Positions 31,545 through 58,283 of a stretch of 64,000 nt of DNA are shown piece after piece. This stretch comes from Pseudomonadota bacterium (lineage in GTDB: Bacteria > Myxococcota > JACRCW01 > JAFGSX01). The stretch's first letter is position 1, and every line of letters begins with the position of its first letter. The notes beneath the pieces were generated by a model. That model did not search any database, was not told where the DNA came from, and worked only from the letters and a program-made list of their open reading frames with translations. The stretch covers positions 1-64,000 of the forward strand of contig JBDRCO010000068.1 in NCBI GenBank assembly GCA_043821645.1, read 5' to 3'. A program made the translations under genes and the position numbers.

Positions 31545-33296
31545 TTACCAGCCAAGCCGTCCAAGATCCTGCATGTCGTGGATGGTGCGCTTGCTCGGCA
31601 GCGCTGCCCCAGTCGAGGGATCGGTTGCGATCTGGGCTGCGCGGGGGTCGAGGTACAGGTCCTCGAAGGGGAAGCCGTAGCTCGTGTCGCCATCCAGTTC
31701 GGGGTCGTTGATGAGTCCATGGTTCTCGCCGCGGCTGGTGCGTGCACAGTCGACCCGCTGCAGGCTCCAGTCGATGCCCCAGAACAGGAGCTCGACCTTG
31801 CGGATCGTCACCTGGTCCCGGCTGGCCTGAACCTCGGCCCAGCTGAAGCGTCGGCCCTGGAGGTAGTGCTCGACAAAGGCACGCATCACAGGGTGCAGGC
31901 GACCCTCGGCATAGTGGCGAAAAAGGTTGAGGGGAATCTCGATCGTGCCCTGGCGTGGCCGGGGGCTCGACAGCAGACCTCGACCGGGCTGCTCCAGGAC
32001 CTCGCTGGTGCGCAGGGTCTCGGTCGTGTGCAGCACCAGGTCGTAGTAGCGGTCGGGGGCCACGTGCACCCGGAGCAGGGCGGGCGAGCAATAGGGATGC
32101 AGGTCGATCAACTCCAGCGCCCAGTCCTCGTCGACGATGGTGTTCTGGATGCGCCCGGGCAGCAGGGACCGCGCGTCCAGATTGTGGGCAAAGCACGCGT
32201 CCTCGACCACGCCCAGGGTGCGCTCGGTACTGTCCTGGGCCAGGTTGTCGAGTTCTGTCCCACCGATCTCGTGGTCGGTGCGGACAAAGCGCCAGGGCGT
32301 GGTGGCGTCGGGATCCTCGACCACGTCGTGCATGTCCTTCTCGTAGTAGCCGCGATGTCCGTCGGCATCCCAGCCCTCGACGCGCATGGCGGCGTGAAGG
32401 CTGCCCGTGCCCAGCTTGTGCAGGCTGATGCGGTCGGTGATGCGGCCCGGGACCTTGGGTTGCTGGAACCAGGGCCAGGAGGGGAGCTGGAACCGGCGCA
32501 GCGTGTCGTCGAGGAGACCGCTCTGATCGCCGTAGGTGTAGTCGAAATAGTCCTCGAAGGGATTGTTGGCGCCGGAGACATCGTAGTCGAAGACCCGGGT
32601 GTAGATATCACCGCGGTGATTGATGAGCATGTGCCGGGACCCGCTGGATGCCAGGTTGACCGCCACGAAACGGCCGCGGCGGGGGCCGCACATCTCGTAG
32701 TTCCAGTCCGCGGGGAGCCAGCCGTCATTGAAGCCTATCCACTGTCCACCCGCCTTGAGCAGGAACACGTGGGTGCAGCTGGCCCATCCCACCTTGCGCA
32801 GCCAGCCCGAGGCATCCGTGTAGTGCTGATCCAGCTCGGCACTGGTCGAGGACAGCGCCCAGCGAATGTGTCCAGACTCCAGGATGTTGGGGGAACCAAT
32901 GGACATCGGAAAGCCGCGACGCGGGCTCCAGGAGAAATGCTCGAGGGTGTCGAGAGCGTAGTAGTTCATCCACAGCTCGCCGCGAGCGTCGGCCGCGTGC
33001 ATGAAGCGGTCGTCGATGTCGAGCCCGCTGACCTGGTCGGCGAGCTCCGGGGGCAGCCAGAGTTTCTGCCAGGCTTGGGGATCGCGCGAGAAGTCGGTGA
33101 TGGGCTTGATGTAAATGCCGCCCTTGCACAGCCAGATCTGGTAGCGCTGATTGAAACTCGCCAGGTTGTCGCGCAGGTGGATACGGGCTGGAGCGTGCAG
33201 CAGGCATTCCGGATCTGGAGGAACTGTGGCGCTGGCGCAGCCCAGGAACAGGCCTGCCAGACAACACGCCCCCTTCACTCCCCTCGTCGTCGACAT
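31545..33296 (-). CDS. Hypothetical lipoprotein, Trp/Tyr-rich, possibly beta-propeller
   Basis: GGAG RBS; lipobox FLGC; long ORF with coding-like composition. Confidence 0.7.
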   Translation of the reverse strand: MSTTRGVKGACCLAGLFLGCASATVPPDPECLLHAPARIHLRDNLASFNQRYQIWLCKGGIYIKPITDFSRDPQAWQKLWLPPELADQVSGLDIDDRFMHAADARGELWMNYYALDTLEHFSWSPRRGFPMSIGSPNILESGHIRWALSSTSAELDQHYTDASGWLRKVGWASCTHVFLLKAGGQWIGFNDGWLPADWNYEMCGPRRGRFVAVNLASSGSRHMLINHRGDIYTRVFDYDVSGANNPFEDYFDYTYGDQSGLLDDTLRRFQLPSWPWFQQPKVPGRITDRISLHKLGTGSLHAAMRVEGWDADGHRGYYEKDMHDVVEDPDATTPWRFVRTDHEIGGTELDNLAQDSTERTLGVVEDACFAHNLDARSLLPGRIQNTIVDEDWALELIDLHPYCSPALLRVHVAPDRYYDLVLHTTETLRTSEVLEQPGRGLLSSPRPRQGTIEIPLNLFRHYAEGRLHPVMRAFVEHYLQGRRFSWAEVQASRDQVTIRKVELLFWGIDWSLQRVDCARTSRGENHGLINDPELDGDTSYGFPFEDLYLDPRAAQIATDPSTGAALPSKRTIHDMQDLGRLGW

Positions 33297-33504
33297 ATCG
33301 CTGCTCCCAAGATGTTGCCTCGAGGGTGCAACACCAGCGCTGCCTGCTGTTGTCCACTCTGTCAGCGCCGTCACACTTTCGAAGCTGCGGGATGTGTGAA
33401 AGGTGAAGGTGAAGCCCCGGCGGCTCGCCTGACACCATGTGGCGCGGCCATGCGGAGGCGGACGCCCGGGCTCCATCGCCACCGTGTCGCCACCACGGCG
33501 CTAG

Positions 33505-33565
33505 AAAAAAAACGAAGGGCGTGGAACATCCGGTGGGGGGAGCACCGGGATGAACCACGCCCTTC
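33505..33565 (-). terminator. Intrinsic terminator (3' hairpin of the candidate sRNA)
   Basis: 11-bp perfect basal stem GAAGGGCGTGG/CCACGCCCTTC followed by G and U8. Confidence 0.8.
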
Positions 33566-33637
33566 AAAGGGAAGAAAAAGCAGGGCCTGGATCGTCGGAC
33601 CGGGGGGGGAATCCTAGGAACCGTCACCCTGCTGAGT
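33505..33637 (-). ncRNA. Candidate sigma54-dependent small RNA with two C-rich-loop hairpins (Pxr-like architecture)
   Basis: Stem AGCAGGG...CCCUGCU enclosing a C8 loop; stem GAAGGGCGUGG..CAUCC.CGGUG-CUCCCCC-CACCG.GAUG..CCACGCCCUUC followed by GUUUUUUUU; upstream sigma54 box. Confidence 0.65.
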
Positions 33638-33646
33638 TCTTGTATT

Positions 33647-33663
33647 AGCGAGTACCGTGCCAG
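33647..33663 (-). promoter_or_regulatory. Sigma54 (-24/-12) promoter
   Basis: CTGGCACGGTACTCGCT with exact GG-N10-GC spacing. Confidence 0.75.
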
Positions 33664-33965
33664 CGTGCGGAGGCCACTCCCTGGTCCGGGTTCATTGGTT
33701 TTTTTTGCTTGGTCCGTGGAGAGCCGAAAGCGGCAAGCGGCAAGCGCTCTACAAGAACCGACGACGCGAAAAATACGTTAATTATAATAATATGTTAGAT
33801 GATGGCGAAAGAACCACATCGAGTACCATCAATAGCCGCACACGGAGGGTGGCTCTATCTATCGCGTCCTGGGCGCTGGGAGTTGGCGTCGGCGGCCTGC
33901 ACTCGCTATGAATGCACCACAGCACGTTGACTGGGCACACATGAACCCGGGGGCGAGCGAGGCCC

Positions 33966-35753
33966 ATGACGGTCGAGATTGCGGCGATCACTGGCATCCT
34001 TTTGGCCACCGTGGTGCTGCTCGCCAGCGAGCGGATCCCCGTGGACGTCACCGCTCTCGGCATCATGGTTGTGCTCATGGCAAGCGGGCTGCTCTCTCCA
34101 GGTGAGGCGCTCGCAGGGCTTGCCAACCCCGCGCCGGTGACCGTTGCCGCGCTGTTCGTGGTGAGCCGGGGGCTGGTCGAGACCGGTGCCCTGCAGGTCC
34201 TGAGCGACAGGCTGGTGATCTGGAGTGGCGGGCGCCAGGGGCGATTGCTGGTTCTGGTCCTGGTCACCACAGGCACGTTGTCGGCCTTCGTCAACAACAC
34301 TCCGGTGGTGGTGCTGCTGATCCCCTTGCTGCTCACGGTGAGCCACCGCAACGGGCTCAGTCCGTCGAAGCTGCTCATGCCCGCCTCGTTCATGTCCATC
34401 CTGGCTGGCACCACGACCCTCATCGGTACCTCGACCAACATCGTGGTCAGCGACACGGCCATGCAACTCGGCATCGCCCCGCTGGGGATGTTCGAGCTGA
34501 CGGCGCTGGGCCTGCCCCTCGCTGTCGTGGGAGGGCTCTACCTGTATCTGGCGTCACCAAGGCTGCTGCCCGCCCACCGGGAACCCGTGGTGGACCTCGA
34601 TGACCCCGAGCGGCAGCGCTATATCTCCGAGCTGAAGATCCCGCGAGACAGCCCCCTCATCGGTGCCAGCCCCATCGACGCCCTGTGTCAGCGCTGTCCT
34701 GACATGACGGTCTACGAGGTCCTGCGCGACACGCAGGTCATCGAACCTGCCCGGGAAGGTGTGCGCTTGCAGGCGGGTGACGTGGTCCTGGTCACGGCCT
34801 CCGCTGGCGATCTGGTGCAGATCCTCGACGGCAGACTGGCCGCCCTGCCCAAGGGCGAGAACGGAACCTTCGCTGCTCCCTTTGAAGAAAGTGCGGGCAT
34901 CGTCGAGCTCATCGTGCCGCCGAACTCGGATCTGGTGGGGCGGCGCCTTGCCAACGTGGCGCTGGGAGTGGACAGCCATGTGCACGTGATCGGCGTCAAG
35001 CGGCGTCGCACGCACTATGCGGAGCAGCGAGCCAGCGACTTGCGGCTGTCGGTCGGTGACATCCTGCTGGTTCAGGCCCCGCTCGATCACATCGATCAGA
35101 TCCGCAAGGGGGCGGACGTGATCGTGGTCGAGGATGTCCGTCAGAAGATCCACAATCGCCGCAAGGCGCCGCTGGCACTGAGTCTGTTCGGGCTGATGAT
35201 CGCGGCAGCCAGCCTGGGTCTGGTCGACATCCTGGTGGCTTCGCTAGCCGCGGCCCTGCTCATGCTGCTCACGGGCTGCCTCAGCCGCCGCGCGGCCTAC
35301 CAGTCTGTGGATACCCGGACCTTGCTGCTCATCGTGGGCACTCTCGCCCTGGGCCTTGCGCTCTCCCGCACCGGCGCTGCCGCCTTCTACGCGGATCTCC
35401 TGCTCACCTTCACCCGCGACCTCGGGCCGAGGGCGGTGCTGGGTTCGGTCGTCGTTGGCACCAGTGTGCTCAGCCTCTTCCTGAGCAACACCGCGACGGC
35501 CGTGCTCATCGTCCCGGTGGCCGTGGCCCTGGCGCAGGGCATGAACCTGGACCCGCGACCTTTCGTGGTGGCCGTGGTGTTTGGCGCATCGGCATGTTTC
35601 GCCTCGCCCCTGGGCTATCAGACCAACCTGCTGGTGTACGGTCCCGGGGGCTACAGCTTCCGCGACTACGTGCGCCTGGGTGTACCGCTGCATGGCATGG
35701 TCTGGGTGGTCGCCACGGTGGCCATCCCCTGGCTGTGGCCGTTCTCGGGTTGA
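33966..35753 (+). CDS. SLC13/CitMHS-type permease with two TrkA-C domains
   Basis: SAFVNNTPVV, SPSKLLMP, TLIGTSTN, LSNTATA, PLGYQTNLLVYGPGGY. Confidence 0.93.
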   Translation: MTVEIAAITGILLATVVLLASERIPVDVTALGIMVVLMASGLLSPGEALAGLANPAPVTVAALFVVSRGLVETGALQVLSDRLVIWSGGRQGRLLVLVLVTTGTLSAFVNNTPVVVLLIPLLLTVSHRNGLSPSKLLMPASFMSILAGTTTLIGTSTNIVVSDTAMQLGIAPLGMFELTALGLPLAVVGGLYLYLASPRLLPAHREPVVDLDDPERQRYISELKIPRDSPLIGASPIDALCQRCPDMTVYEVLRDTQVIEPAREGVRLQAGDVVLVTASAGDLVQILDGRLAALPKGENGTFAAPFEESAGIVELIVPPNSDLVGRRLANVALGVDSHVHVIGVKRRRTHYAEQRASDLRLSVGDILLVQAPLDHIDQIRKGADVIVVEDVRQKIHNRRKAPLALSLFGLMIAAASLGLVDILVASLAAALLMLLTGCLSRRAAYQSVDTRTLLLIVGTLALGLALSRTGAAAFYADLLLTFTRDLGPRAVLGSVVVGTSVLSLFLSNTATAVLIVPVAVALAQGMNLDPRPFVVAVVFGASACFASPLGYQTNLLVYGPGGYSFRDYVRLGVPLHGMVWVVATVAIPWLWPFSG

Positions 35754-36115: not shown

Positions 36116-39100
36116 TCAGGTGCGGCGCGGTCGGCGGCGAAGGGCATACAGCATGCCGAGTGCCAGCAGCAGGGCAGAGCTGGCACGAACACCGGAGGAC
36201 CCACAGGAACACCCTCCACCCGTGATGGTCACGTCCGAGTACGGCTCATCGTCACAGGCATCACCCATACCGTCACCGTCGCTGTCCAGTTGATCCCGGT
36301 TGGCGACCCCCGGGCAGTTGTCGAGGCTGCTGTACACACCGTCTCCATCGGGGTCCACCACGGCTAGCTCGACGCAGTCCGAGGGCTCGTCCGTGCAGAC
36401 GAATCCTGGCTCGATCTGGCAGGTGGCATCGCAGCCGTCGCCGGCCGAACGATCGCCATCGTCGCACTGCTCCCCGGCATCGATGGCCAGGTTGCCGCAC
36501 AGGGGCGTGCAGACCGAAGGCTCGCCCGCACAGGAATAGCTCGTCTCGACCTGGCAGGTGGCATTGCAGCCGTCACCGACGACCAGGTTGCCGTCATCGC
36601 AAGTCTCACCCGCGTCGAGGCTGCCGTCACCGCAGGTGAGAGCACAGACCGAGGGTTCACCCGAACAAGCGTAGCCGCTCTCGACCTGGCAGGTGGCATT
36701 GCAGCCGTCACCGACGACCAGGTTGCCGTCGTCGCAAGTCTCACCCGCGTCGAGGCTGCCGTCGCTGCAGGTCAGGGCGCACACCGAGGGCTCGCCGATG
36801 CAGGCGTAGCCCGGCTCCACCTGGCACAGGTTGTTGCAGCCGTCGCCGACAATGAGGCCGCCATCATCGCAGGCCTCGCCCGCATCGAGCGCTGCATTGC
36901 CACACAGCAGGCTGCAGGTCGAGGGCGTGCCGCTGCACACCCAGCCCGGCTCCACCTCGCAGCGATCGCTGCACCCGTCGCCGTCCCGGGCATTGCCATC
37001 GTCGCAGGCTTCGCCATCCACCACGTCGCTGTCGCCGCACACCGGGGCGCAGGTCGACGGCGTCCCGGCGCAGACGAAGCCGGGCTCGATCTGGCAGATC
37101 ACCGAGCATCCATCGTCGGCGGTCTGGTTTCCGTCGTCGCAGGCCTCACCAGCGTCCAGAGTGCCATCGCCGCAGGTCGTGGCGCAGGTGCTGGGCTGGC
37201 CCGTGCAGACCGAGCCAGGCTCGACCTGGCACAAGTCGCTGCAGCCGTCCCCGGCGACAGTGCCACCGTCGTCACAGCCTTCACTGGCCGTGATCACGCC
37301 ATCGCCACACTGCTGGGTGCAGGCGCTGGGCGAACCGGCGCAGTTCCACCCCGGTTCCACCTGGCAGGTGCTACTGCAGCCGTCTCCGGCCCGGGTGTCC
37401 CCGTCGTCACAGACCTCGCCAGCGTCGATCGCGCCGTTGCCGCAGCTCGGCGCGCAGGCGCTCGGTGAGCCGCTGCAGGCCCAGCCCGGCTCGACCTGAC
37501 AGGTGGCATCACAGCCGTCCCCGGTTGCCAGGCCGGCGTCGTCACAGGCCTCGCCAGCGTCGAGCGCGCCATTGCCGCAGCTGGCCACGCACAGCGAGGG
37601 CTCACCGCTGCACTGGTATCCAGGTTCGACCGCGCAGGCGGCGTTGCAGCCGTCGTTGCCCGCGAGGTTGCCATCGTCGCAGCCCTCGCCAGCCTGCAAC
37701 AGGCCATCCCCGCACGAGCGCAGACAGGTGCTGGGAGTCCCCGAGCAGGTCCAGCCTGGCTCGACCTGGCAGGTCTCCGAGCAGCCGTCTCCCGAGGTGC
37801 TGCCGCCGTCGTCGCAGGCCTCGCCACTGTCCAGGGTGCTGTCGCCGCAGGTCTGGGAGCAGACGCTGGGTGCGCCCAGGCACACATATCCAGGTTCGAC
37901 CTGGCACAGGTCATCGCAGCCGTCGCCCGCATCGAGGTCGCCGTCATCGCAGGCCTCGCCCAGGTTCAGGACACCATTGCCGCAGGCCGGTTCGCACAGG
38001 CTCGGGGAACCGTGGCAGGAGTAGCCGGTCTCGACCTGGCAGGATGCGTCGCAGCCGTCGCCGGTCAGGGTGTTGGCATCGTCACAGGTCTCGGCCCCCG
38101 TCCTCAGGCCATCGCCGCAGCTGGCGGCGGTGCATACGGAGGGCGTACCTGTGCATTGCCATCCTGGGTCCACCTGGCAGGCACTACAGCCATCGTCCGG
38201 CAGTCCGTTGCCATCGTCACAGGCCTCGACACCGGCCACGATGCTGTCGCCGCAGCTGGTGCCACAGCGCGAGGGCTCGGCCGAGCAAACCCAGCCGGAC
38301 TCGACCTGACACAGGGCGGAGCAACCGTCTCCGTCCGCGACTGCGCCGTCGTCGCAGCCCTCGCTGGAGGCCACCAGACCATCACCACAGCTTGAGCTGC
38401 AGGCCGAGGGCGTTCCCGTACAGACGAAGCCGTGCTCCACCAGGCAGGCCGCGTCGCAGCCGTCACCTGCCGCCGAGTTGCCATCGTCACAGGCCTCGCT
38501 CATGGTCAGGATCGCGTCGCCGCAGACCGGGACGCAGGTCGACGGGGCGCCCACGCAGAAATAGCCAGGTTCCCGCTGGCAGACAGCGCTGCAGCCGTCA
38601 CTGCTCGCCGCGTTGCCGTCGTCGCATTGCTCGCCGGCATCGAGAGCCCCGTTGCCGCAGGTGGCCACGCACACGCTGGGCGACACGCTGTTGTCACACA
38701 CGTAGCCCGGCATGACCTGGCACAGGTCGCTGCAGCCGTCGCTGACCCCTGTCACGCCGTCGTCGCAGGCCTCGTCAAAACCGACCACGCCGTCCCCGCA
38801 GGTCGTAACGCAGAAGCTGGGCTCCCCGCTGCACGACGCACCGGTTTCCTCCTGGCAGGTCGGTGAGCAGCCATCGCCGGCCTGCAGGTTCTGATCGTCA
38901 CAAGCCTCACCCGCGTCGAGCTGGCCATTGCCGCAGCTCGCGGTACAGGTACTGGGCAGGGAAGAGCTGTCGCACACGTAGCCAGGCTCGACCTGGCAGC
39001 TCGCATCGCAACCGTCCCCTGGGGCAAAGTTCCCGTCGTCACAGCCTTCTCCCGCATCGAGGCTGCTGTTGCCGCAGGTCTGGGCGCACAGCGAGGGCTG

Positions 39101-42100
39101 GCCGCTGCAGACCCAGCCCGGCTCGACCTGGCACAGGGCACTGCAACCGTCCAGGTGGGCGCGGTTGCCGTCATCACAACCTTCTCCAGGATCGATGGCG
39201 GCGTCACCACAATGCTGCGGCGTACAGGACGGGCCGCTGTTGCCTGGGACGCACTGGTCGCAGTACGGACCGTAGAATCCGGGCTGGCAGGAGCAGGTGC
39301 TGGGCGTCCCGGCCGGCAGCGTGCAGGTCCATCCGGGCTCAACCTGGCACGTGGACGAGCACCCATCTCCGCTGATCGCGGCGCCGTCGTCACAGGCCTC
39401 ACCGGGGTCCAGGCCGCCGTTGCCACACACCAGCAGGCACACGCTGGGCACACCGCTGCAGCTGTAACCTGGTTCGACACGGCAGGTGTCGGAGCATCCA
39501 TCCAAGTTATCCAGGTCGCCGTCGTCGCAGGCCTCACCGGGGTTGAAGACCCCGTTGCCACAGACCGGGAAGCACGCGCTAGGCTCGCCGCTGCAGCTGT
39601 AGCCCGGCTCCACCCGGCACAGGTCAGAACAACCGTCGCCAGCACTGGTTCCGGCGTCGTCGCAGGTCTCGCTCCCTGCCAGCACGCCGTCGCCGCAGGT
39701 CGTGGTGCAGGTGCTGGTCGGCGTGCCACTGCACGTGAAGCCTCGCTCGACACTGCAACGCGAGTCGCAGCCATCCCGGTTGGCGACGTTGCCGTCGTCG
39801 CAGGCCTCGCCGTCCGCGACGATGGCGTCCCCGCACAGGGGCTGGCAGTCCGAGGGCGCCCCAAGGCACACGAAGCCGGGTTCCACAGTGCACGTATTCG
39901 TGCACCCATCCCCCATGGTCAGGTTGCCGTCGTCACACGCTTCGCCCGCATCGAGGGCGCCATTGCTGCACGTCGCCGCGCAGGACCCGGGTCCGGTGCC
40001 CACGCAGACGTACCCAGGTTCGACCTGGCAGCTCGCCGAGCAGCCATCGCTGGCCACGGCGTTTCCGTCGTCGCAGGTCTCCCCGTTTGCCTTCAAGCTG
40101 TCTCCACACACAGCGGCACAGATAGAGGGCGGGCTGCTGCTGTCGCAGGTGGAGCCCGACTCGACCTGGCAAGACGCCGAGCAGCCGTCGAGGGGGTCGA
40201 TGTTGCCGTCGTCACAGATCTCGCCGCTGTCCAGGATTCCGTCGCCGCAGGTCTGGGTACAGGCGCTGGGGGTCACGGAGGTGTTGCACACCCAGCCTGG
40301 TTCCACCGCGCAGGTCGCGGAGCAGCCGTCGCCAGCGACCAGGTTCTGATCGTCGCAGGCCTCACCGGTGTCCAGGGTCCCGTCTCCGCAGGTCGCCGCG
40401 CAGACGCTGGGCTGCACCACGGTATCGCACACGTAGCCGGGCTCGACCTGGCACAGAGCGGAGCAGCCGTCGCCGGAGCTCAGGTTGCCGTCGTCACAGG
40501 TCTCGCCACTGTCCGTGGTGCCGTCGCCGCAGCTCTCGAGCGCGCAGCTGGGGCCGTCGTATCCAGTGGCACACTGGTCGCACAGGGCCCCGGTGAAGGG
40601 CGGTAAGCAGGTGCATGTGCCAGGGCCTGCACCGACGCAGACCCAGCGGTCCTCGACCTGGCAACTCGGACTGCATCCGTCACCTGCCAGGAGGTTCTGG
40701 TCGTCGCAGGCCTCACCAGGGTCCAGAGCGCCATCGCCGCAGGTCAGGGAACAGTCCGAGGGCGTGCCAGTGCAGCCATATCCAGGCTCGACACGGCAGA
40801 TGTCGCTGCAGCCGTCGCCATTGACGCCATTCTGGTCGTCACACTGCTCCCCTGGATTGAGCACGCCGTTGCCACAGACCGGGTCGCAGACCGAGGGCTG
40901 ACCCGTGCATGCGTACCCAGGTTCGATGGCACAGGTAGCCGAGCAACCGTCGCCGGCTGCGGTCGCTCCATCGTCGCACTGCTCCGCACCGCTCACGGAA
41001 CCGTCCCCGCAAACCGTGACACAGACCGAGGGGTCTCCCGAACAGCTCCAGCCCGACTCCAGGGTGCAGGCTGGGCTGCAGCCGTCGCCCAGGCTGGCGT
41101 TGCCGTCGTCGCAGGCTTCGCCGAGGTCGACGGTGCCGTTGCCGCAGGTGAAGACGCAGGTGCTGGTCGGCAAACCCGTGCACACCCAGCCTGGCTCAAC
41201 GGTGCAGGCGACCGAGCAGCCATCACCCGAGGTATCGTTGCCGTCGTCACAGGCCTCGGCGCCGGCGACGATGCCGTCGCCACAGTGCTCTGCCACGCAG
41301 ACCGAAGGCGATCCCGTGCATAGCCAGCCCGGCTCCTCCGCGCACAGCGCACTGCAACCGTCGCCGTCCGTATTTGCCCCGTCGTCACAGGTCTCGTTGC
41401 TCTGGACCACGCTGTCGCCACAGGAGCCGGTCACCGCGCTGCAGTCGCCCGCACAGTAGTCACCATCCACGGTGTTGCTGTCGTCGCAGGCCTCGGTCTC
41501 GGCGCAGGTCGCACCGTCACCGCAGGACGAGCCCGCGCCTGCGCCGGAGCAGGTGGCGTTGCAGGAGCCACACGCGTCGGCAAAGCCGTCGTCGCAGCTC
41601 TCGATCTCGGGGCACACCACGGAGTCACCGCAGGTCGAGCCGGAGCCCGCACCTGTGCAGGTGGCGTTGCAGGTGCCGCAGGCGTCGGCGAAACCATCGT
41701 CACAACTTTCGGTCTCGGGGCACAGGACGCTGTCCCCGCAAGTGGAACCCGTCCCTGCGCCGGAGCAGGTGGCGTTGCAGGTGCCACAGGCGTCCGCGTA
41801 GCCGTCGTCGCAGGTCTCGGTCTCGAGGCAGGTGGCGCCATCACCACAAACCGAACCCGAACCCGAGCCCGAGCACGTCGCGTTGCAGCTACCGCAGGCA
41901 TCCGTGAAGCCGTCGTCACAGGACTCGGTCTGGGGACAGGTCGCGCCGTCTCCGCAGGTCGAGCCCGTGCCGGCGCCGGTGCAGGTCGCGTTGCAGGTCC
42001 CGCACGCATCCGTGTAGCCATCGTCGCAGAACTCGGAGCCCTCGGTGACGCCATCACCGCAGACGGGCAGGGTCACGGTCCAGGTGTAGGTTGCCGGGGT

Positions 42101-44497
42101 GACCTCGGTATTGCCCGCGCAGTCGATGGCGCGCACCCGGAAGGTATAGCTCCCGTCGATGAGCCCGCTGTAAGGCCAGGGACTTGTACAGAAAGTCCAG
42201 GCACCAGGGACGGCGCCGACGTCGAGGCGACACTGGAACACCACCGAGGTCTCGGCGTTGGTGAACGCGAAGCTCGCGGTGGGGAGCAGCGAGGGGTTGC
42301 TCGGCCGGGCTGTGATGCTGGTGCCAGAGGGCGCCGTGGTGTCGGCCGCACCGCTGCTGATCGAGAAGTTGACCGTGCGCACGGTGCTGAGGTTGCCCGC
42401 GCGGTCGATCGCCACGCTCTCCATCACGTAGGCTGAGGTCCCCAGAGCCTGGGCGGGCAGCGTCTCGTAGGACCAGAAGCCACTGGCGTCCGCCGTGACC
42501 GTGGCCAGGCGCGCGTCCATGAGGCCGCCCCCGTTGAGGTCGATGGTCACCCGGGCAAAAGGCTCGGTGGTGCCCCGGAAGTTCGGCGTCGTGTCGTTGA
42601 CCGTGCTGCTGTTGACCGGGCACTGCACGACGGGGGGCGCCGGATCGGTGCGATCCACAATCCAGTCCCAGCGTGCTGGGCTCGCGTCGACGTTGCCGGC
42701 CGCATCCACGGCACGGACTTCGAAACGGTGGGCGCCTTGGCCGAGCCCGATCTCCACACGCGGGCTGGTGCACGCGCTGAAGGCTGCGCCGTCCAGGCTG
42801 CACTCGAAGGCGCTGCCAGCCTGGCTGGCAGTGAAGCCGAAGGTCGCGTCCACCGACAGCGTGAACAGCGGCGGCGTCTGGGTGAAGGTCGTGTCCGGGG
42901 CCGTGGTGTCGACCGTCCAGGTGTAGGAGGCCGGCGTCGGGTCCGTGTTACCGGCAGCGTCGGTGGCGCGCACGGAAAAACTGTGCGGGCCGTCGCCCAG
43001 GGCGCCGGTCGCCTGCGGCGAGGTGCAAGGAGCGTAGGCCGCACCGTCGAGGCTGCACGCGAAGCTGCTACCACTCTCGCTCGAGGTGAAGGTGAAGCTG
43101 GGGCTCGCCGTGCCGCTCGGGTCGCTCGGCGTTCCTGTCAACGTGGTCTCGGGCGGGGTGGTGTCACCCGCATTGGGGTCGACGGTGAAGGTGATGGGGC
43201 TGCTCACTGGCCCGAGGTTGCCTGCTGCATCCGTGGTGCGCGCCGTGACGGTGTGGGTGCCGTTGCCCAGGACCTGGCCTGACGTCAGGGTGTAGCTGAA
43301 GTTGCCCGCCGCGTCGGTGATGGCGAACCCGACCGAGCTCCCGTCGACGAAGATCTCCGCCATCGCTCCAGCCTCGCTCTCGCCGGTGTTGCCCGTGATG
43401 GTCGGTGTGGTCTCGCTGGTGCTGCTGCCGTTGGCGGGCGACAGGATGGTGGGCGCCGGGGGCGGCGTGGTGTCGACGCGCCAGGTGTAGCTGGCTGGCG
43501 TCGGGTCGACCTTTCCCGAGCTGTCCTTGGCGCGCACCAAAAAGGTGTGGCTGCCCTGGCTCAGACCGCTCAGCGCGCGAGGGCTCGTACACACGGCATA
43601 GGCCGCCGCGTCGAGCTTGCACTCGAAGGTCGCGCTGGCGTCGTTGGAATTGAACTGGAAGCTCGCGCTGGTCTGGTTCGTCAAAGTGGCCGGCTTGGCC
43701 GTGATGAAGGTATCAGGCTCGCCGCCTGTGCAGCCCGATGGATCCGTGCAAAAAACCGGATCGCCCGCGCCTCCGCTGACCGTCACGCCCGTGGTGTCAC
43801 CCGAGAGCAGCCGGCCGTTCTGCGACGAGCCGAAGAACAGGCGCAGGGGCAGGGAGGTGTTGTAGCCCATGGCGACGAGGTCGGCGATGGGGATGGCCCA
43901 GCTCAAGAAGTAGTCGGGGTTGCCGCTAAAACAGCCCGTGGAGCAGGCCTGGGTCGAGCGAAAGAACGCGGGGTAGGGGCTGACAGGGTAGATGCCGACG
44001 AACACGTCCGCATCGTCGGTGGGACTCGAGGTTCCCGAGCCCTGGGTGTTCTGCTGCAACGTCACGCGCTCGGGGTTGCCCATGCCGCCGTCGACCATGG
44101 ACAACGCATCGTAGTTGCTCAGGTCGCCGTCCCAGTCGAGCAACGCACCCCAGCCCCACTGCCCGAGCAGGCCGTTGCCGCTGGGCGCGCACACTCCAGC
44201 GGTCCGGTTGGTGCAGGGATCTCCGTCGAGGCGAATGCGCAGGAACAGGTAGGTGGCGTCGCGCGCCACGTAGGCCGCCGGCCTGGTGGCATCGCCCACC
44301 AGCTCCTGGGCGCTGTTGCCGCCCTCGACGGGGTCTGACAGCGCCACGTTGCTGGCCTCGATGGGCAGCCAGGCTGAGTCTGCCGGCCAGCTTGCCGGAG
44401 GAGGGGTCTGGGCACTGGCGGTGGAGACCAGGAGGACACCCAGCAGACCGATCGAAACGGTCAAGAACCGCACCCAGGTCTTCGCCATGCCTGTCAT
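36116..44497 (-). CDS. Giant (~2790 aa) surface protein: signal peptide, Ig-like domains, dozens of DUF4215/Myxococcus Cys-rich repeats, EGF-like and TSP3 motifs, MYXO-CTERM
   Basis: CGDGxxxxxExCDDGNxxxGDGCxxxCxxExG repeats; FEVRAVDAAGNVD; DNCPGVANRDQLDSDGDGMGDAC; C-terminus GGGCSC-hydrophobic-RRRPRR. Confidence 0.93.
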   Translation of the reverse strand: MTGMAKTWVRFLTVSIGLLGVLLVSTASAQTPPPASWPADSAWLPIEASNVALSDPVEGGNSAQELVGDATRPAAYVARDATYLFLRIRLDGDPCTNRTAGVCAPSGNGLLGQWGWGALLDWDGDLSNYDALSMVDGGMGNPERVTLQQNTQGSGTSSPTDDADVFVGIYPVSPYPAFFRSTQACSTGCFSGNPDYFLSWAIPIADLVAMGYNTSLPLRLFFGSSQNGRLLSGDTTGVTVSGGAGDPVFCTDPSGCTGGEPDTFITAKPATLTNQTSASFQFNSNDASATFECKLDAAAYAVCTSPRALSGLSQGSHTFLVRAKDSSGKVDPTPASYTWRVDTTPPPAPTILSPANGSSTSETTPTITGNTGESEAGAMAEIFVDGSSVGFAITDAAGNFSYTLTSGQVLGNGTHTVTARTTDAAGNLGPVSSPITFTVDPNAGDTTPPETTLTGTPSDPSGTASPSFTFTSSESGSSFACSLDGAAYAPCTSPQATGALGDGPHSFSVRATDAAGNTDPTPASYTWTVDTTAPDTTFTQTPPLFTLSVDATFGFTASQAGSAFECSLDGAAFSACTSPRVEIGLGQGAHRFEVRAVDAAGNVDASPARWDWIVDRTDPAPPVVQCPVNSSTVNDTTPNFRGTTEPFARVTIDLNGGGLMDARLATVTADASGFWSYETLPAQALGTSAYVMESVAIDRAGNLSTVRTVNFSISSGAADTTAPSGTSITARPSNPSLLPTASFAFTNAETSVVFQCRLDVGAVPGAWTFCTSPWPYSGLIDGSYTFRVRAIDCAGNTEVTPATYTWTVTLPVCGDGVTEGSEFCDDGYTDACGTCNATCTGAGTGSTCGDGATCPQTESCDDGFTDACGSCNATCSGSGSGSVCGDGATCLETETCDDGYADACGTCNATCSGAGTGSTCGDSVLCPETESCDDGFADACGTCNATCTGAGSGSTCGDSVVCPEIESCDDGFADACGSCNATCSGAGAGSSCGDGATCAETEACDDSNTVDGDYCAGDCSAVTGSCGDSVVQSNETCDDGANTDGDGCSALCAEEPGWLCTGSPSVCVAEHCGDGIVAGAEACDDGNDTSGDGCSVACTVEPGWVCTGLPTSTCVFTCGNGTVDLGEACDDGNASLGDGCSPACTLESGWSCSGDPSVCVTVCGDGSVSGAEQCDDGATAAGDGCSATCAIEPGYACTGQPSVCDPVCGNGVLNPGEQCDDQNGVNGDGCSDICRVEPGYGCTGTPSDCSLTCGDGALDPGEACDDQNLLAGDGCSPSCQVEDRWVCVGAGPGTCTCLPPFTGALCDQCATGYDGPSCALESCGDGTTDSGETCDDGNLSSGDGCSALCQVEPGYVCDTVVQPSVCAATCGDGTLDTGEACDDQNLVAGDGCSATCAVEPGWVCNTSVTPSACTQTCGDGILDSGEICDDGNIDPLDGCSASCQVESGSTCDSSSPPSICAAVCGDSLKANGETCDDGNAVASDGCSASCQVEPGYVCVGTGPGSCAATCSNGALDAGEACDDGNLTMGDGCTNTCTVEPGFVCLGAPSDCQPLCGDAIVADGEACDDGNVANRDGCDSRCSVERGFTCSGTPTSTCTTTCGDGVLAGSETCDDAGTSAGDGCSDLCRVEPGYSCSGEPSACFPVCGNGVFNPGEACDDGDLDNLDGCSDTCRVEPGYSCSGVPSVCLLVCGNGGLDPGEACDDGAAISGDGCSSTCQVEPGWTCTLPAGTPSTCSCQPGFYGPYCDQCVPGNSGPSCTPQHCGDAAIDPGEGCDDGNRAHLDGCSALCQVEPGWVCSGQPSLCAQTCGNSSLDAGEGCDDGNFAPGDGCDASCQVEPGYVCDSSSLPSTCTASCGNGQLDAGEACDDQNLQAGDGCSPTCQEETGASCSGEPSFCVTTCGDGVVGFDEACDDGVTGVSDGCSDLCQVMPGYVCDNSVSPSVCVATCGNGALDAGEQCDDGNAASSDGCSAVCQREPGYFCVGAPSTCVPVCGDAILTMSEACDDGNSAAGDGCDAACLVEHGFVCTGTPSACSSSCGDGLVASSEGCDDGAVADGDGCSALCQVESGWVCSAEPSRCGTSCGDSIVAGVEACDDGNGLPDDGCSACQVDPGWQCTGTPSVCTAASCGDGLRTGAETCDDANTLTGDGCDASCQVETGYSCHGSPSLCEPACGNGVLNLGEACDDGDLDAGDGCDDLCQVEPGYVCLGAPSVCSQTCGDSTLDSGEACDDGGSTSGDGCSETCQVEPGWTCSGTPSTCLRSCGDGLLQAGEGCDDGNLAGNDGCNAACAVEPGYQCSGEPSLCVASCGNGALDAGEACDDAGLATGDGCDATCQVEPGWACSGSPSACAPSCGNGAIDAGEVCDDGDTRAGDGCSSTCQVEPGWNCAGSPSACTQQCGDGVITASEGCDDGGTVAGDGCSDLCQVEPGSVCTGQPSTCATTCGDGTLDAGEACDDGNQTADDGCSVICQIEPGFVCAGTPSTCAPVCGDSDVVDGEACDDGNARDGDGCSDRCEVEPGWVCSGTPSTCSLLCGNAALDAGEACDDGGLIVGDGCNNLCQVEPGYACIGEPSVCALTCSDGSLDAGETCDDGNLVVGDGCNATCQVESGYACSGEPSVCALTCGDGSLDAGETCDDGNLVVGDGCNATCQVETSYSCAGEPSVCTPLCGNLAIDAGEQCDDGDRSAGDGCDATCQIEPGFVCTDEPSDCVELAVVDPDGDGVYSSLDNCPGVANRDQLDSDGDGMGDACDDEPYSDVTITGGGCSCGSSGVRASSALLLALGMLYALRRRPRRT
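36400..42065 (-). repeat. Coding Cys-rich tandem repeat array (mostly ~47-50 aa units)
   Basis: Recurrent CDDGN...GDGC...CQVEPG; five shorter ~36-aa CDDG[YF]xDACG[TS]CNATC units near 41540-42030. Confidence 0.9.
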
Positions 44498-44683
44498 TTC
44501 TTCCTCGAGTCGACGAGCCCCCGCCCGCGTGTTCAAGTCTGGCTGGCGGGGATGATATCACCTTGGTCGCTTCGGTCGATTGTCGTCCGCGAGGCCAGTG
44601 CTGGCGCGTCCTTGAGGGTCGGCCGAGCCCTGGCAGGCGTTGCCTGGCTTGACGGCCGCGCGAGCAACCGTCAAGGTGGATGC

Positions 44684-54709: not shown

Positions 54710-56731
54710 ATGCGCTCATTGATTTGCATGGCATGTGTGCTGCTCGCCTTCGACACCGCGAGCGCGCGAGTGCAGCCATTGGCGGGGGAGGGCACCGGCC
54801 GAGAGCTGGTCGTGGCCAAGAAGGCCAAGGCCAAGAAGCCGGCAGCCAAGAAGAAGCGCGCCCAGCCCAAGGATCCCAAGGGCGCAGCGACCACCGCCGC
54901 GCTCGAGGGCGACAAGCTGCTGCAAGGTGGCGACGCAGGGGCTGCCCTGGCCAAGTACGAGGAGGCCCTGGAGTACGACGCTGGCAATGTGCTGGCGCTG
55001 CGGGGCATGGGCGAGATCGAGTTCGGGAACGGCCGTTTCGACGAGGCTGCGGCCTATTTCGAGAAGGCCATCGCCGCGGATCCGACCTATGCCCAGGGCT
55101 ACTACAATCTGGGTTATGCCCTGCGCAAGGGAGGCAAGTATCCCGAGGCGGCCAAGGCCTACGGCGAGTTCATCCAGCGCAGTCCTGCCGAGGCGGATGG
55201 ATACTACGGCTACGCCGAGTCCCTGAGGCTCTCCGGCGACAAGCTCAAGGCTGCCGACTTCTTTGACAAGTACGCCGAGGTTGAAAAGCGTCCCTCGGAG
55301 CGCGAGTGGGTCGACAAGGCCAAGGTCACGGCCAAGCAGCTGCGCACCGAGGCGTCGGCCGACAAGATTGCCGCCGAAAAGGCTGCGGCCGAGAAGCTGG
55401 CGGCGGAGCGCGCGGCTGCGGCGAAGGCAGCCGCGGAACAAGCCGCAGCCGAAAAAGCGGCCGCCGAGAAGGCCGCGGCCGAGCGGGCAGCGGTCGAGAA
55501 GGCAGCCGCCGAGAAGCTGGCTGCCGACAGAGCGGCTGCCGAGAAGCTGGCAGCGGAGCGTGCAGCGGCGGACAAAGCAGCGGCGGACAGGGCTGCCGCC
55601 GAACGTGCTGCTGCCGACAAGGCTGCTGCCGACAAGGCCGCCGCGGAACGTGCTGCGGCGCAGGCCGCCCTGGCTGAAAAAGCAGCAGCCGAACGTGCGG
55701 CGGCGGAGAAGGCAGCGGCCGCTGCAGCAGCGGCAGCCGCGGCGCAGGCAGCCGCCGACAGGGCCGCCACGGACAAGGCTGCGGCAGATAGAGCGGCAGC
55801 GGCAAAGGCAGCAGCAGATGCCGCGGCGATCGCGGCGGCCAAGGCAGCAGCAGATCGCTCGGCGGCGGATAGAGCCGCAGCGGATCGAGCGGCGGCGGAC
55901 CGGGCAGCGGCAGAGCGAGCAGCCGCTGACAAGGTGGCCGCAGATCGAGCAGCGGCGGATCGAGCAGCAGCAGATCGTGCAGCCGCTGACAGAGCGGCAG
56001 CGGACAGGGCCGCCGCGGCCAGGTCACCATCGACGGCACAACCTTCCACGGGTGATCAGCAACTGGCCCTGCGCCTGATGGCTCAGGGCGATGCGGACCT
56101 CAAGGCCAAGCGCCTTGGAAGCGCCAAGCAGTCCTACCTGTCAGCGCTGCAGAAGATGCCCGCCAGCGTCGAGGCCAACTACAAGCTGGGTCTGGTCTAC
56201 GCCATGAGTGACGAGTATGACGCGGCAGCACAGCAGTTTCAGCAAGTGCTGCGCATCGACCCCAACAACGCCGGTGCCAAGGCCAACCTGGAGCGGGCGC
56301 GCAAGAAGGCGGCGCTGGATAGACAGAAGAAGGGCGGCGACAGCCTCGGCCTGCCCCCGGAGGTGCAGTCCCAGGGTCTGTATCGCGAGGCCGTGCAGCT
56401 GATCACCCAGCGCCAGTACCGCGACGCCATCGTCAAGCTCGACGAGTCGCTGCGCATCAAGCATGACTTCGCCCTGGCCTACGTGGCCCGGGGCAGTGCC
56501 TACGTCGGCATCGCGGACTACCGCCGGGCCATCGCCGAATACCAGAAGGCGTTGACCTTCGACGGTGCCCTTGCCTCACCCTATTATGGCCTGGCCGAGG
56601 CCTACCGTGGCCTCGGAGACAGCGTTCAAGCGCGCGCGAACTACAAGCGGTACGTGGACAGCAAGGGACGTGATCGCGACCCCAACATGGCCAAGGCTGC
56701 CGATGCCTGGATCCAGAAGCTCGGGGGTTAG
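54710..56731 (+). CDS. Secreted TPR protein with long Ala-rich (AAA[DE][RK])n spacer
   Basis: GGAGG RBS; signal peptide; TPR motifs (YYNLGYAL, NYKLGLVY, YYGLAEAY). Confidence 0.88.
   Translation: MRSLICMACVLLAFDTASARVQPLAGEGTGRELVVAKKAKAKKPAAKKKRAQPKDPKGAATTAALEGDKLLQGGDAGAALAKYEEALEYDAGNVLALRGMGEIEFGNGRFDEAAAYFEKAIAADPTYAQGYYNLGYALRKGGKYPEAAKAYGEFIQRSPAEADGYYGYAESLRLSGDKLKAADFFDKYAEVEKRPSEREWVDKAKVTAKQLRTEASADKIAAEKAAAEKLAAERAAAAKAAAEQAAAEKAAAEKAAAERAAVEKAAAEKLAADRAAAEKLAAERAAADKAAADRAAAERAAADKAAADKAAAERAAAQAALAEKAAAERAAAEKAAAAAAAAAAAQAAADRAATDKAAADRAAAAKAAADAAAIAAAKAAADRSAADRAAADRAAADRAAAERAAADKVAADRAAADRAAADRAAADRAAADRAAAARSPSTAQPSTGDQQLALRLMAQGDADLKAKRLGSAKQSYLSALQKMPASVEANYKLGLVYAMSDEYDAAAQQFQQVLRIDPNNAGAKANLERARKKAALDRQKKGGDSLGLPPEVQSQGLYREAVQLITQRQYRDAIVKLDESLRIKHDFALAYVARGSAYVGIADYRRAIAEYQKALTFDGALASPYYGLAEAYRGLGDSVQARANYKRYVDSKGRDRDPNMAKAADAWIQKLGG
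55361..56020 (+). repeat. 15-bp-period coding repeat (AAA[DE][RK])
   Basis: About 220 aa of pentapeptide repeats such as AAADR and AAAEK. Confidence 0.85.
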
Positions 56732-56750
56732 GGTCGGGGTGCGCAGCGAC

Positions 56751-58283
56751 ATGAAATCAAGCACCGAACGCCTGCGGGACGAGCTCGAGCGCGTCCACCA
56801 GGGCGGCGCCAAGAAGTATCACGACAAGAATGCCAGCGAGGGCAAGCTGTTTGCCCGGGAGCGCGTGCGTCTGCTGCTCGACGCCGACAGCTTTGTCGAG
56901 GACGGAGCCCTGGCCAACAACCAGGCCCCGGAGCTGCCCGCGGATGGCCTGGTGTGCGGCTTGGGCAAGATCCACGGACGTCCTGTGGCGGTCATCGCCA
57001 ACGACCAGACGGTCAAGGCCGGAAGCTGGGGCGAGCTCACCGTCGAGAAGATCGTCCGCACCCAGGAACTCGCGGGACGCTTCGGCATCCCGCTGTTCTA
57101 CCTGGTCGACTCGGCGGGTGCGCGCATCACGGATCAGATCCGCATGTTTCCGGGCCGCCGCCACGCCGGGCGCATCTTTCACAACGAGGTGCAGCTGTCG
57201 GGCTACGTGCCGCAGATCTGCCTGCTGTTCGGCCCCAGTGCCGCCGGCGGCGCGTACATCCCGGCCTTTTGCGACATCGTCATCATGGTCCGTAACAACG
57301 CCGCCATGTACCTTGGCAGCCCGCGCATGGCCGAGATGGTCATCGGTGAGCGCGCCTCGCTCAACGACATGGGCGGCGCGCGCATGCACTGCGAGATCTC
57401 GGGCTGCGGCGACATCCTCGTCGACGATGACCAGGCTGCCATCGACACCGCCCGCCGTTACCTCGGCTACTTCCCCCAGAACTACGCCGAGCTCTTGCCG
57501 CCGGCAGTGAGCCGGGATCCTTCGCCCAAGGCACGCCCCATCGACGACATCGTGCCACAGCACCAGAATCAGATCTTCGACATGCGGCTGCTCATCGAGG
57601 CCCTGGTCGACGAGGACAGCTGGTTCGAGATCAAGAAGCTGTACGCCCGCGAGATCCTGACCGGCCTGGCACGCCTGGGAGGTCGGGTGGTGGGCATCGT
57701 CGCCAACCAGAGCAAGCACCTCGGCGGCGTGCTGTTCGTCAACTCCGCGGACAAGGCGGCGCGCTTCGTCAACCTGTGCGACGCCTTTGGCATCCCCCTG
57801 ATCTTTCTCGCCGACGTGCCCGGGTTCATGATCGGCAGCAAGGTCGAGAAAGAAGGCATCATCCGCCACGGCGCGAAGATGATCGCGGCCATCAGCGAGG
57901 CCACCGTGCCCAGGTTCTGCGTCGTCGTGCGCAAGGCCTACGGTGCAGGTCTCTACGCCATGAGCGGACCGGGCTTCGATCCCGACGCCACCCTGGCGTT
58001 GCCCCAGGCCATGATCGCGGTCATGGGACCCGAGGCCGCGGTCAATGCGGTTTACTTCAACAAGATCCAGGAGCAGCCCGAGGCCGAACGCGAGGCCTTC
58101 GTGGAGCGCCTGCGTCAGGAATACCGCGAGGACATCGACCTGATGCGGCTGGCTGGCAACCTCATCGTCGACGCAGTGGTACCGCCGGCCGCGCTGCGAC
58201 GGGAACTGCTGGCGCGCCTCGACCTGGCCAGGACCAAGCGCGTGCACAGCTACCCCAAGAAGAGAGCTGTGCTGCCGGTCTGA
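56751..58283 (+). CDS. Acyl-CoA carboxylase carboxyltransferase (beta) subunit, methylcrotonyl/propionyl-CoA type
   Basis: GKLFARER, TVKAGSWG, DSAGAR, AGGAYIPA, DVPGFMIG, RKAYGAG, AVMGPE. Confidence 0.93.
   Translation: MKSSTERLRDELERVHQGGAKKYHDKNASEGKLFARERVRLLLDADSFVEDGALANNQAPELPADGLVCGLGKIHGRPVAVIANDQTVKAGSWGELTVEKIVRTQELAGRFGIPLFYLVDSAGARITDQIRMFPGRRHAGRIFHNEVQLSGYVPQICLLFGPSAAGGAYIPAFCDIVIMVRNNAAMYLGSPRMAEMVIGERASLNDMGGARMHCEISGCGDILVDDDQAAIDTARRYLGYFPQNYAELLPPAVSRDPSPKARPIDDIVPQHQNQIFDMRLLIEALVDEDSWFEIKKLYAREILTGLARLGGRVVGIVANQSKHLGGVLFVNSADKAARFVNLCDAFGIPLIFLADVPGFMIGSKVEKEGIIRHGAKMIAAISEATVPRFCVVVRKAYGAGLYAMSGPGFDPDATLALPQAMIAVMGPEAAVNAVYFNKIQEQPEAEREAFVERLRQEYREDIDLMRLAGNLIVDAVVPPAALRRELLARLDLARTKRVHSYPKKRAVLPV

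Follow-up and report, generated by a model that had tools for sequence, protein, structure and literature searches.

A conserved multi-copy family of putative sigma-54-dependent small RNAs with C-rich loops in an uncultured class of Myxococcota

Small RNAs (sRNAs) that depend on sigma-54 and an activator protein include Qrr, GlmY, CrcZ and NrsZ, and the Qrr RNAs share a seed. C-rich loops that act by base pairing are known from RsaE/RoxS and CcsR, and the 6C family, also with C-rich loops, is included in Rfam. In myxobacteria, Pxr is the only well-studied sRNA; it holds back fruiting-body development as long as nutrients are available. The statement that it originated in Cystobacterineae reportedly comes from Chen et al. 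2014, as judged from citations. Excerpts of two later papers place the origin of pxr in this group, at the base of one suborder (PMC5684412, PMC11928866). The gene lies downstream of the NtrC-type activator gene pxrR (nla19), according to excerpts of PMC5568312 and PMC5684412, and deletion of the loop of its stem-loop 1 (SL1) or a single C-to-A change in this loop abolishes function, as given in part of PMC5684412. The direct targets of Pxr were described as still unknown after 15 years in an excerpt of PMC11928866. The 6C RNA of M. tuberculosis binds several mRNAs via C-rich loops without RNA chaperones (PMC6486639, in excerpt), and Qrr1-5 of Vibrio form a set of sibling sRNA copies (PMC3730234, in excerpt). 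Here, a 64,000-nt stretch of contig JBDRCO010000068.1 (assembly GCA_043821645.1), referred to as the window, was analysed. It belongs to a 7.07-Mb genome (G000) of 94.7% completeness from an uncultured lineage of Myxococcota. One intergenic gap of the window probably holds a stand-alone gene whose product, a regulatory sRNA about 125-132 nt long, is one of three paralogues, has relatives in a deep uncultured class of the phylum and would act in trans through C-rich seed loops. Judged from sequence comparison, it represents a new sRNA family that is conserved and multi-copy and of a kind already known, predicted to be sigma-54-dependent and to carry C-rich seed loops.

The unit was located on the minus strand at 33662-33505 in a gap of 669 bp (Table 1). 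The flanking genes showed a codon-phase GC signal, which was lost at 33300-33950, marking the gap as non-coding. A previous sequence-only reading of this DNA had described a correctly spaced minus-strand sigma-54 box ahead of an unannotated non-coding unit made of a C8-loop hairpin, a U-rich linker, a second hairpin with a CUCCCCC loop and a U8 tail. All of these elements were recovered in the sequence and in the predicted fold, the box with GG-N10-GC spacing, and a covariance-model scan of the window against Rfam returned no family at gathering score. The 141-nt stretch folded with a minimum free energy (MFE) of -61.9 kcal/mol (z = -6.75), which 0 of 200 shuffles equalled, and both hairpins formed as described. 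Hairpin 2 folded alone reached z = -8.43. It was not flagged by a simple terminator scan, which we think was due to the short apical stem and the long basal stem enclosing more than 8 nt.

Homologues were sought with three covariance models: R1 was built from the window RNA alone, R2 from 25 distinct Pxr sequences and R3 was a hairpin model. Genome-wide searches with such RNA models score few first-look candidates, so that a 'not found' from them is weak. Copies were found in three genomes, with three in G000 (window, C31 and C87), one in G001 of the same family and five in G003 of the same class. BLASTn with the 191-nt region gave weak matches only in the own genome, namely C31 (E 7.6) and C87 (E 4.1), both of which later proved to be paralogues. 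The whole-genome R1 search of G000 returned the window copy only and overlooked true homologues, because few first-look candidates were scored. R1 aligned the copies G001:C133 (37.8 bits, E 1.3e-9) and G003:C148 (26 bits, E 2.9e-6) over their full length. Both are laid out like the window copy: the box is followed by hairpin 1 (apex AGGACUC9GGUCC), a U-rich linker, hairpin 2 (apex GGUG(C/A)UC8ACC) and U7. R3 found each of them as two adjacent modules. Hairpin 2 of the window, which was outside the R3 training set, scored 26 bits with this model (E 3e-4).

The two paralogues in G000 each have their own sigma-54 box. The C31 copy (~56640-56830, minus strand) comprises hairpin 1 and a plain UUCG terminator. 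The C87 copy (224611-224790, plus strand) has twin C8 loops, and its hairpin 2 closely resembles that of the window; it was found by scanning all 487 runs of at least seven C in the genome. Four of the G003 copies have a single long hairpin with apex GGACUU-C8-GGUCC, directly followed by GCUUUUUUU; three are arranged in tandem about 400 nt apart and the fourth lies elsewhere. The 15-nt apex UUCCCCCCCCGGUCC is identical in window hairpin 1 and these four copies, as is the base GCA.../...UGCUUUUU, and the GCUUUUU... tail after the hairpin is their sole terminator. A promoter-independent apex pattern matched eight sites (G000 two, G001 one, G003 five, G002 none) versus none with the reversed control. 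The family can be defined by a hairpin 1 apex GGAYUYC7-9GGUCC behind a sigma-54 box and an optional hairpin 2 with apex GGUGMUC6-8ACC and U7-8, and the window copy carries both modules. For genome annotation, this adds at least nine RNA genes, so far unannotated, to the three genomes.

A descriptor of sigma-54 box, 25-55 nt gap and TTCCCCCC matched 73 of 301 Myxococcota genomes, a count that includes the unpublished G195 among its 69 matches in family f11, versus one match of the reversed-pattern control. Outside f11 it matched the window, G003 (three times), G010 and G150. Several matches of the different searches were rejected. Two were judged unrelated: G150, a pilin mRNA leader, and G264:C238, which precedes a coding gene as its leader. 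The sole BLASTn match among 40 relatives, G003:C346, is a signal-peptide coding sequence. The R1 matches among 150 relatives, in G051 and G031, fell on lipoprotein signal-peptide and proline codons and were false. An R3 match in G114 was dropped for want of a C-rich loop.

The sequence-only reading had counted a lack of conserved or covarying homologues among the outcomes that would refute it, and such homologues exist in G001:C133, G003:C148 and the two G000 paralogues. A run of C7-C9 was retained in every copy, and each homologue folds with the C-run in an apical loop. The hairpin 2 apex GGUG(C/A)UC6-8ACC was retained in G000:C87, G001:C133 and G003:C148, and the three two-hairpin homologues terminate in U7. 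The MAFFT alignments A3, A4, A5 and A8 were out of stem register, and pair changes were therefore counted on the model-fitted and the tail-anchored registers. For the 11-bp basal stem of hairpin 2 in four two-hairpin RNAs, anchored on the U-tail and thus independent of a model, seven pairs showed double changes, one a one-sided change and three were invariant, with none broken. The model-fitted alignment of ten hairpins gave double-sided changes in 15 of 20 pairs and 89.4% paired cells versus 33-44% when partners were slid by 1-3 columns (0 of 500 shuffles matched), figures that lean to the fitted structure, mix hairpin 1 and hairpin 2 modules and come from three genomes only. Contigs from the DNA runs X2-X4 represent near-identical strains and thus contribute no covariation; the X4 contig has C7 instead of C8 in the hairpin 1 loop and a G>A change at 33707. 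A single metatranscriptome, X6, yielded no contig at 33000-34200, a result without bearing on expression. Unchanged loops, compensating stems and a conserved promoter box together form the signature of a functional RNA gene.

With a single rpoN gene and about 39 strong genes for enhancer-binding proteins, G000 makes heavy use of sigma-54. The motif TGGCACG-N4-TYGCW occurred seven times in the 7.07-Mb genome. The form TGGCAC-N5-TYGC was enriched at the correct spacing in non-coding-like windows only, with 26 occurrences versus 12-17 at seven wrong spacings, and the TCGC variant alone was found 17 times versus 9-14. Given this weak enrichment over wrong spacings, the box taken alone is suggestive at most. 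Elsewhere in G000, boxes with the same CTCGCT -12 form precede genes with a Shine-Dalgarno sequence and ATG by 40-130 nt. The features looked for in a sigma-54 promoter were found at the window site, namely GG-N10-GC spacing, a position in non-coding DNA, and rpoN and activator genes in the genome. Moreover, TGGCAY-N7-GC stood at equal distance from the hairpin in 9/9 family copies of G000, G001 and G003. Among the 46 hairpin loops of C7 or longer with at least eight enclosing pairs in G000, a sigma-54 box within 90 nt was present in the three family copies only. We regard the conservation of the box across copies as the decisive support for the predicted promoter.

Table 1. Coordinates of the predicted sRNA unit, its promoter region and its flanking genes in the window.
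Feature	Position	Strand	Basis or remark
Lipoprotein gene, 583 aa, lipobox LFLGC	31545-33296	-	without Pfam family
U8 tail of the predicted intrinsic terminator	33505-33512	-	sequence
Hairpin 2, 11-bp GC-rich basal stem, apex GGUG-CUCCCCC-CACC	33514-33565	-	predicted fold
CUCCCCC loop of hairpin 2, proposed second seed	33536-33542	-	complementary to GGGAG-type Shine-Dalgarno sequences
U-rich linker CUUUUUCUUCCCUUU, perhaps acting as a first, weak terminator	33566-33580	-	sequence; analogy with G003 single-hairpin tails
Hairpin 1, long imperfect stem, apex GGAUU-C8-GGUCC	33579-33633	-	predicted fold; R3 47.3 bits
C8 apical loop of hairpin 1, proposed seed	33602-33609	-	unpaired in MFE and centroid structures
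Predicted transcription start, ~12 nt downstream of -12 GC	33635-33638	-	from usual sigma-54 promoter geometry
Sigma-54-type promoter CTGGCACGGTACTCGCT	33663-33647	-	TGGCACG-N4-TCGCT, 33662-33647; GG 33661-33660, GC 33649-33648, GG-N10-GC
A8 tract, ~40 nt upstream of -24 element, then CAATGA	33699-33706	-	sequence
AT-rich block upstream of promoter; possible bend, integration host factor (IHF) or activator region	33769-33800	-	sequence
CitMHS/TrkA_C transporter gene	33966-35753	+	Pfam scan

Local GC at the AT-rich block was 0.54-0.55 versus 0.67 window-wide, and AT-rich DNA was also present upstream of both G000 paralogues and the G001 copy. ATTGA-/AATGA-like A/T-rich motifs were seen by eye at similar distance in several family copies. 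The minus strand also has a sigma-70-like site, TCGCCA-16-TATAAT, at 33781-33808, some 130 nt upstream of the sigma-54 box. In plus-strand reading, the AT-rich block could instead carry the promoter of the transporter gene. A perfect 9-nt inverted repeat, TACAAGAAC / GTTCTTGTA at 33636-33644 and 33750-33758, flanks the promoter, with one arm spanning the predicted start. The chance expectation for such a repeat in the gap is about 0.3 by rough estimate, so that it may mean nothing.

Some observations weigh against the reading as an sRNA gene. Hairpin 1 folded alone was unremarkable (z = -1.40), with 14 of 200 shuffles doing equally well. The -12 element reads TCGC instead of TTGC, a variant that is weakly enriched at the right spacing. 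No 8-mer common to all nine upstream regions was found with one mismatch allowed; the best occurred in 7/9 regions and the top-ranked words were mostly GC-rich. The lean, the mixed modules and the three-genome basis of the model-fitted alignment belong here too, as do the same-strand genes 208 nt after the window terminator and about 75 nt after the C31 copy, into which read-through is possible, and the missing enrichment of G-runs at ribosome-binding positions given below. Taken to the extreme, the TCGC variant, barely enriched over wrong spacings, and the z value of hairpin 1 would fit a chance sigma-54-like box beside a strong, bidirectional-looking terminator and a GC-rich hairpin, with no functional RNA gene at all. 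Such a coincidence is very improbable, given that the family spans three genomes, its stems covary, its loops are invariant and every copy has the box. The U-tails occur on the strand of the C-rich loops only, with no gene converging from the other side.

The sequence-only reading had proposed a Pxr-related or new sRNA and described the Pxr loops as C-rich. The latter is correct for SL1, and the unit is indeed Pxr-like in promoter and C-rich loop, while Pxr membership failed with both Pxr models. Real pxr genes were located by a primer printed in PMC5568312 in 74 of 301 genomes of the phylum, including 71 of 115 in family f11, by which the phylum is recognised as Myxococcota. The 25 distinct Pxr sequences share the promoter TGGCAYG-N4-CTGCTA and an SL1 apical loop UUCCCCCCC with UUC7. 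The window RNA resembles them in phylum, predicted sigma-54 promoter, intrinsic terminator and paralogues in tandem arrays, and its first long hairpin has an unpaired UU plus C8 where Pxr has UUC7, with 35 nt from promoter to loop versus 41 nt in Pxr. It differs in having two hairpins, both with C-rich loops, instead of the three stem-loops SL1-SL3, and its host is an uncultured lineage of another class. The SL3 stem is missing, and the invariant SL3 block, an 8-bp core around CGCGGCCCG...CGGGCCGCC, was not present in the window RNA sequence. The locus is not beside pxrR/nla19 or pxrA. As the earlier reading had noted, the flanking lipoprotein and transporter genes include no enhancer-binding-protein gene; none of the pxrR/nla19 type is adjacent, and the nearest activator gene on the contig is at about 96 kb.

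In the Rfam scan of 33300-33900, Pxr was not among the matches at E<=10. The Rfam model RF01812 (gathering score 80 bits) recovered the true Pxr loci L056 and L053 with 82-123 bits and gave no match in L109, L139, L134, L142, L005, L120, L123, L081 and L150; no locus of the new family was hit. In 32500-35000, the best match of R2 aligned hairpin 2 with SL1 at 11.5 bits (E 0.022, 2.5 kb searched), and over the whole G000 genome R2 returned nothing at E<=10; as controls, Pxr itself scored 141.8 bits and divergent f11 copies 34-78 bits. In the reverse test, R3 scored Pxr loci with 11-13 bits (E 0.4-1). With failed Rfam and R2 models, no adjacent activator gene and no SL3 core, the unit is not a member of Pxr by any test run. 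From its sequence it appears Pxr-like by design, not by family membership.

A very diverged true orthologue of Pxr, of the same descent and function, would share the phylum, the sigma-54 promoter, the similar promoter-to-loop distance, the UUC7-8 loop in the first hairpin and the tandem multi-copy arrays. The R2 scores also form a gradient, from 142 bits for Pxr through 34-78 bits for divergent f11 copies and 24.6 bits for G208 to about 11.5 bits for the window. Such orthology is nevertheless unlikely in view of the model results in both directions, the missing SL3 stem and the absent pxrR/nla19-type neighbour, and C-rich loops, like sigma-54 promoters, are frequent enough in the phylum to have arisen repeatedly.

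Two side observations concern Pxr. The tandem array of G003:C497 (L109/L130, ~37760-38660), in which each copy has its own box, lies directly after a GNAT-like acetyltransferase gene (Acetyltransf_6/FemAB-like). The neighbour of pxr in M. xanthus, pxrA, likewise encodes a GNAT acetyltransferase (excerpt of PMC11928866); the GNAT gene beside both may be a coincidence. The divergent Pxr-like genes L111, L113-L115, L117 and L119 of f11 scored 34-78 bits with R2. Set beside the RF01812 gathering score, some of them could go unannotated as Pxr.

The 6C RNA of Actinobacteria (B11/6C) is alike in having two hairpins with at least six C in each loop, compared with C8 and CUCCCCC plus a closing C in the window RNA. 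It comes from another phylum, and neither the Rfam scan of the window at gathering score nor that of 33300-33900 at E<=10 matched it. Actinobacteria are not known to have sigma-54, so that the promoter type of 6C differs. Qrr, GlmY, CrcZ and NrsZ likewise are small RNAs from sigma-54 promoters, and Qrr is also multi-copy. They are gammaproteobacterial, Hfq-dependent or protein-binding, and have other seeds and structures, and the Rfam scans showed no similarity to them.

The lipoprotein gene lies on the same strand 208 nt downstream of the unit, and no sigma-70-like promoter was found between terminator and ATG. The unit might thus be a cis-acting 5' leader or attenuator, in which the sigma-54 promoter serves the lipoprotein gene and hairpin 2 with U8 is a conditional terminator. 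The C31 paralogue, too, is followed by a same-strand gene, for an extensin-like secreted protein (Extensin-like_C), after about 75 nt. Neighbours were compared for the window, C31, C87, G003 C20, G003 C497 and G010. The C87 copy has a ferredoxin gene upstream and a response regulator-GGDEF gene 770 nt downstream, the G003:C20 copy has plsX-type (FA_synthesis) and thioesterase genes as neighbours, and next to the G003:C497 copies are an AI-2E transporter gene and the GNAT-like one. By Pfam, what follows the three G000 copies is unrelated from copy to copy, with no family assigned to the lipoprotein. After the C20 and C497 copies of G003, the next gene is on the opposite strand and convergent. 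The lipoprotein orthologue in G076 (57% identical) is inside an operon and has no such RNA upstream, and the CitMHS neighbour was not found in G001-G003, G076 or metagenomes of the Joint Genome Institute (JGI). No convincing antiterminator was recognised by reading the sequence, where the sole competitor of the hairpin-2 5' arm is a linker helix of 4-5 bp. We consider a leader function to be of low probability. Differing neighbours at each copy examined and convergent genes in G003 fit stand-alone RNA genes, and this comparison of loci favours an independent, trans-acting RNA.

For the course of events at such a stand-alone gene we infer the following. Sigma-54 RNA polymerase together with an enhancer-binding protein would start near 33636 on the minus strand, and transcription would stop at the hairpin-2/U8 terminator at 33505-33512. 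A partial stop at U5CUU after hairpin 1 may yield a short form of about 60 nt. The always-unpaired loops C8 and CUCCCCC would serve as seeds for pairing with G-rich segments at or close to ribosome-binding sites. CUCC of loop 2 complements GGAG, and mRNAs made elsewhere in the genome would be the targets, with their translation lowered, probably without Hfq, whose domain was not found in the 94.7%-complete G000 genome. The loops are proposed as the active part by analogy, because of the Pxr SL1 loop mutants, the loop pairing of 6C and the missing Hfq. G-runs at ribosome-binding positions were not enriched in G000 (G6+ 18 versus C6+ 14), and no target set was prominent.

The same lack of enriched G-run sites would fit a protein-binding decoy, in which the repeated poly-C loops titrate a protein that binds C-rich single strands, comparable to the GGA loops of CsrB/RsmZ, with no mRNA pairing involved. 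The loop motif is repeated within the RNA and across 3-5 copies per genome, including the tandem three of G003, and the direct targets of Pxr, as cited at the outset, have remained elusive. We rate this as rather unlikely. No candidate protein has been identified, although no search for one was made; the characterised C-rich loops of 6C, RsaE/RoxS and CcsR base-pair, and CUCC of loop 2 is a plain anti-Shine-Dalgarno sequence.

Units of the same form as window hairpin 1 were present in further Myxococcota. They consist of a TGGCAY-N7-GC box and one long hairpin with an apical C7-C10 loop directly followed by U6-U8 (z -2.9 to -9.0), and were found in Sorangium sp. So ce1078, a Labilithrix metagenome-assembled genome (MAG), G010, G014, G208 and two metagenome contigs. 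Apart from the loop and the GC...GCUUUU base, nothing in their stems could be aligned with the window copy. When a stricter descriptor (box, TTCCCCCC, GCTNTTTT) was applied to one genome per species in 185,579 species, it matched five stretches: the Labilithrix MAG, Sorangium sp. So ce1078, L122 and L124 of one Myxococcota MAG, and Desulforadius L121. L122 and L124 are sequence-identical to G003 copies and thus not independent. In JGI metagenomes the same descriptor matched four stretches, two of them convincing. Desulforadius L121 and the metagenome contigs L126 and L128 had no clean hairpin and were judged unrelated. A further descriptor matched G208 and G014 among the 301 genomes, with no control matches. 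The R3 scores of the Sorangium and Labilithrix units are not independent, as both were in the training set.

Two of these units have features of their own. L131 (G010:C4, 4267-4332, minus strand) is a single-hairpin unit that follows ftsA-ftsZ, lying 264 nt downstream of ftsZ and on its strand. L150 (G208:C153, 1501-1606), which is not from f11, carries, after its sigma-54 box, a single hairpin whose apex is GAAAGGUU-C7-GCCCUUUC. Its hairpin resembles Pxr SL1 (R2 24.6 bits, E 2.7e-4), and by this sequence likeness it is a possible intermediate form.

Judged by these sequence matches, a design of sigma-54 box plus poly-C-loop hairpin appears to recur across several Myxococcota lineages. The likeness among the groups may reflect homology or convergence, because the models do not link them. 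A literature search of primary texts without supplements yielded no description of a Myxococcota-wide family or of the look-alike units. It is conceivable, though rather doubtful, that Pxr is one branch of an old, phylum-wide superfamily of sigma-54-driven poly-C-loop hairpin RNAs and not a recent invention of Cystobacterineae. The new family and the single-hairpin units of Sorangium, Labilithrix and others would then be further branches, and the partner recognised by the poly-C loop would be of one kind across Myxococcota, also in lineages not known to fruit. Next to Pxr, the family described here would be a second myxobacterial sRNA system, conserved, covarying, multi-copy and from a distant uncultured class. 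It shares with Pxr the predicted promoter type and an essential-looking kind of loop, and look-alike units occur in Polyangia. The family's independent sequences can serve comparative target prediction for the poly-C loop, and they allow an ancient origin of the Pxr design to be tested against a convergent one.

Two flanking features of the window were recorded in addition. The predicted lipoprotein encoded at 31545-33296 has relatives in 32 of 301 Myxococcota genomes, including G000, the best being the G076 protein mentioned above. On the minus strand at 36116-44536, the window carries a very long open reading frame of 2806 aa.

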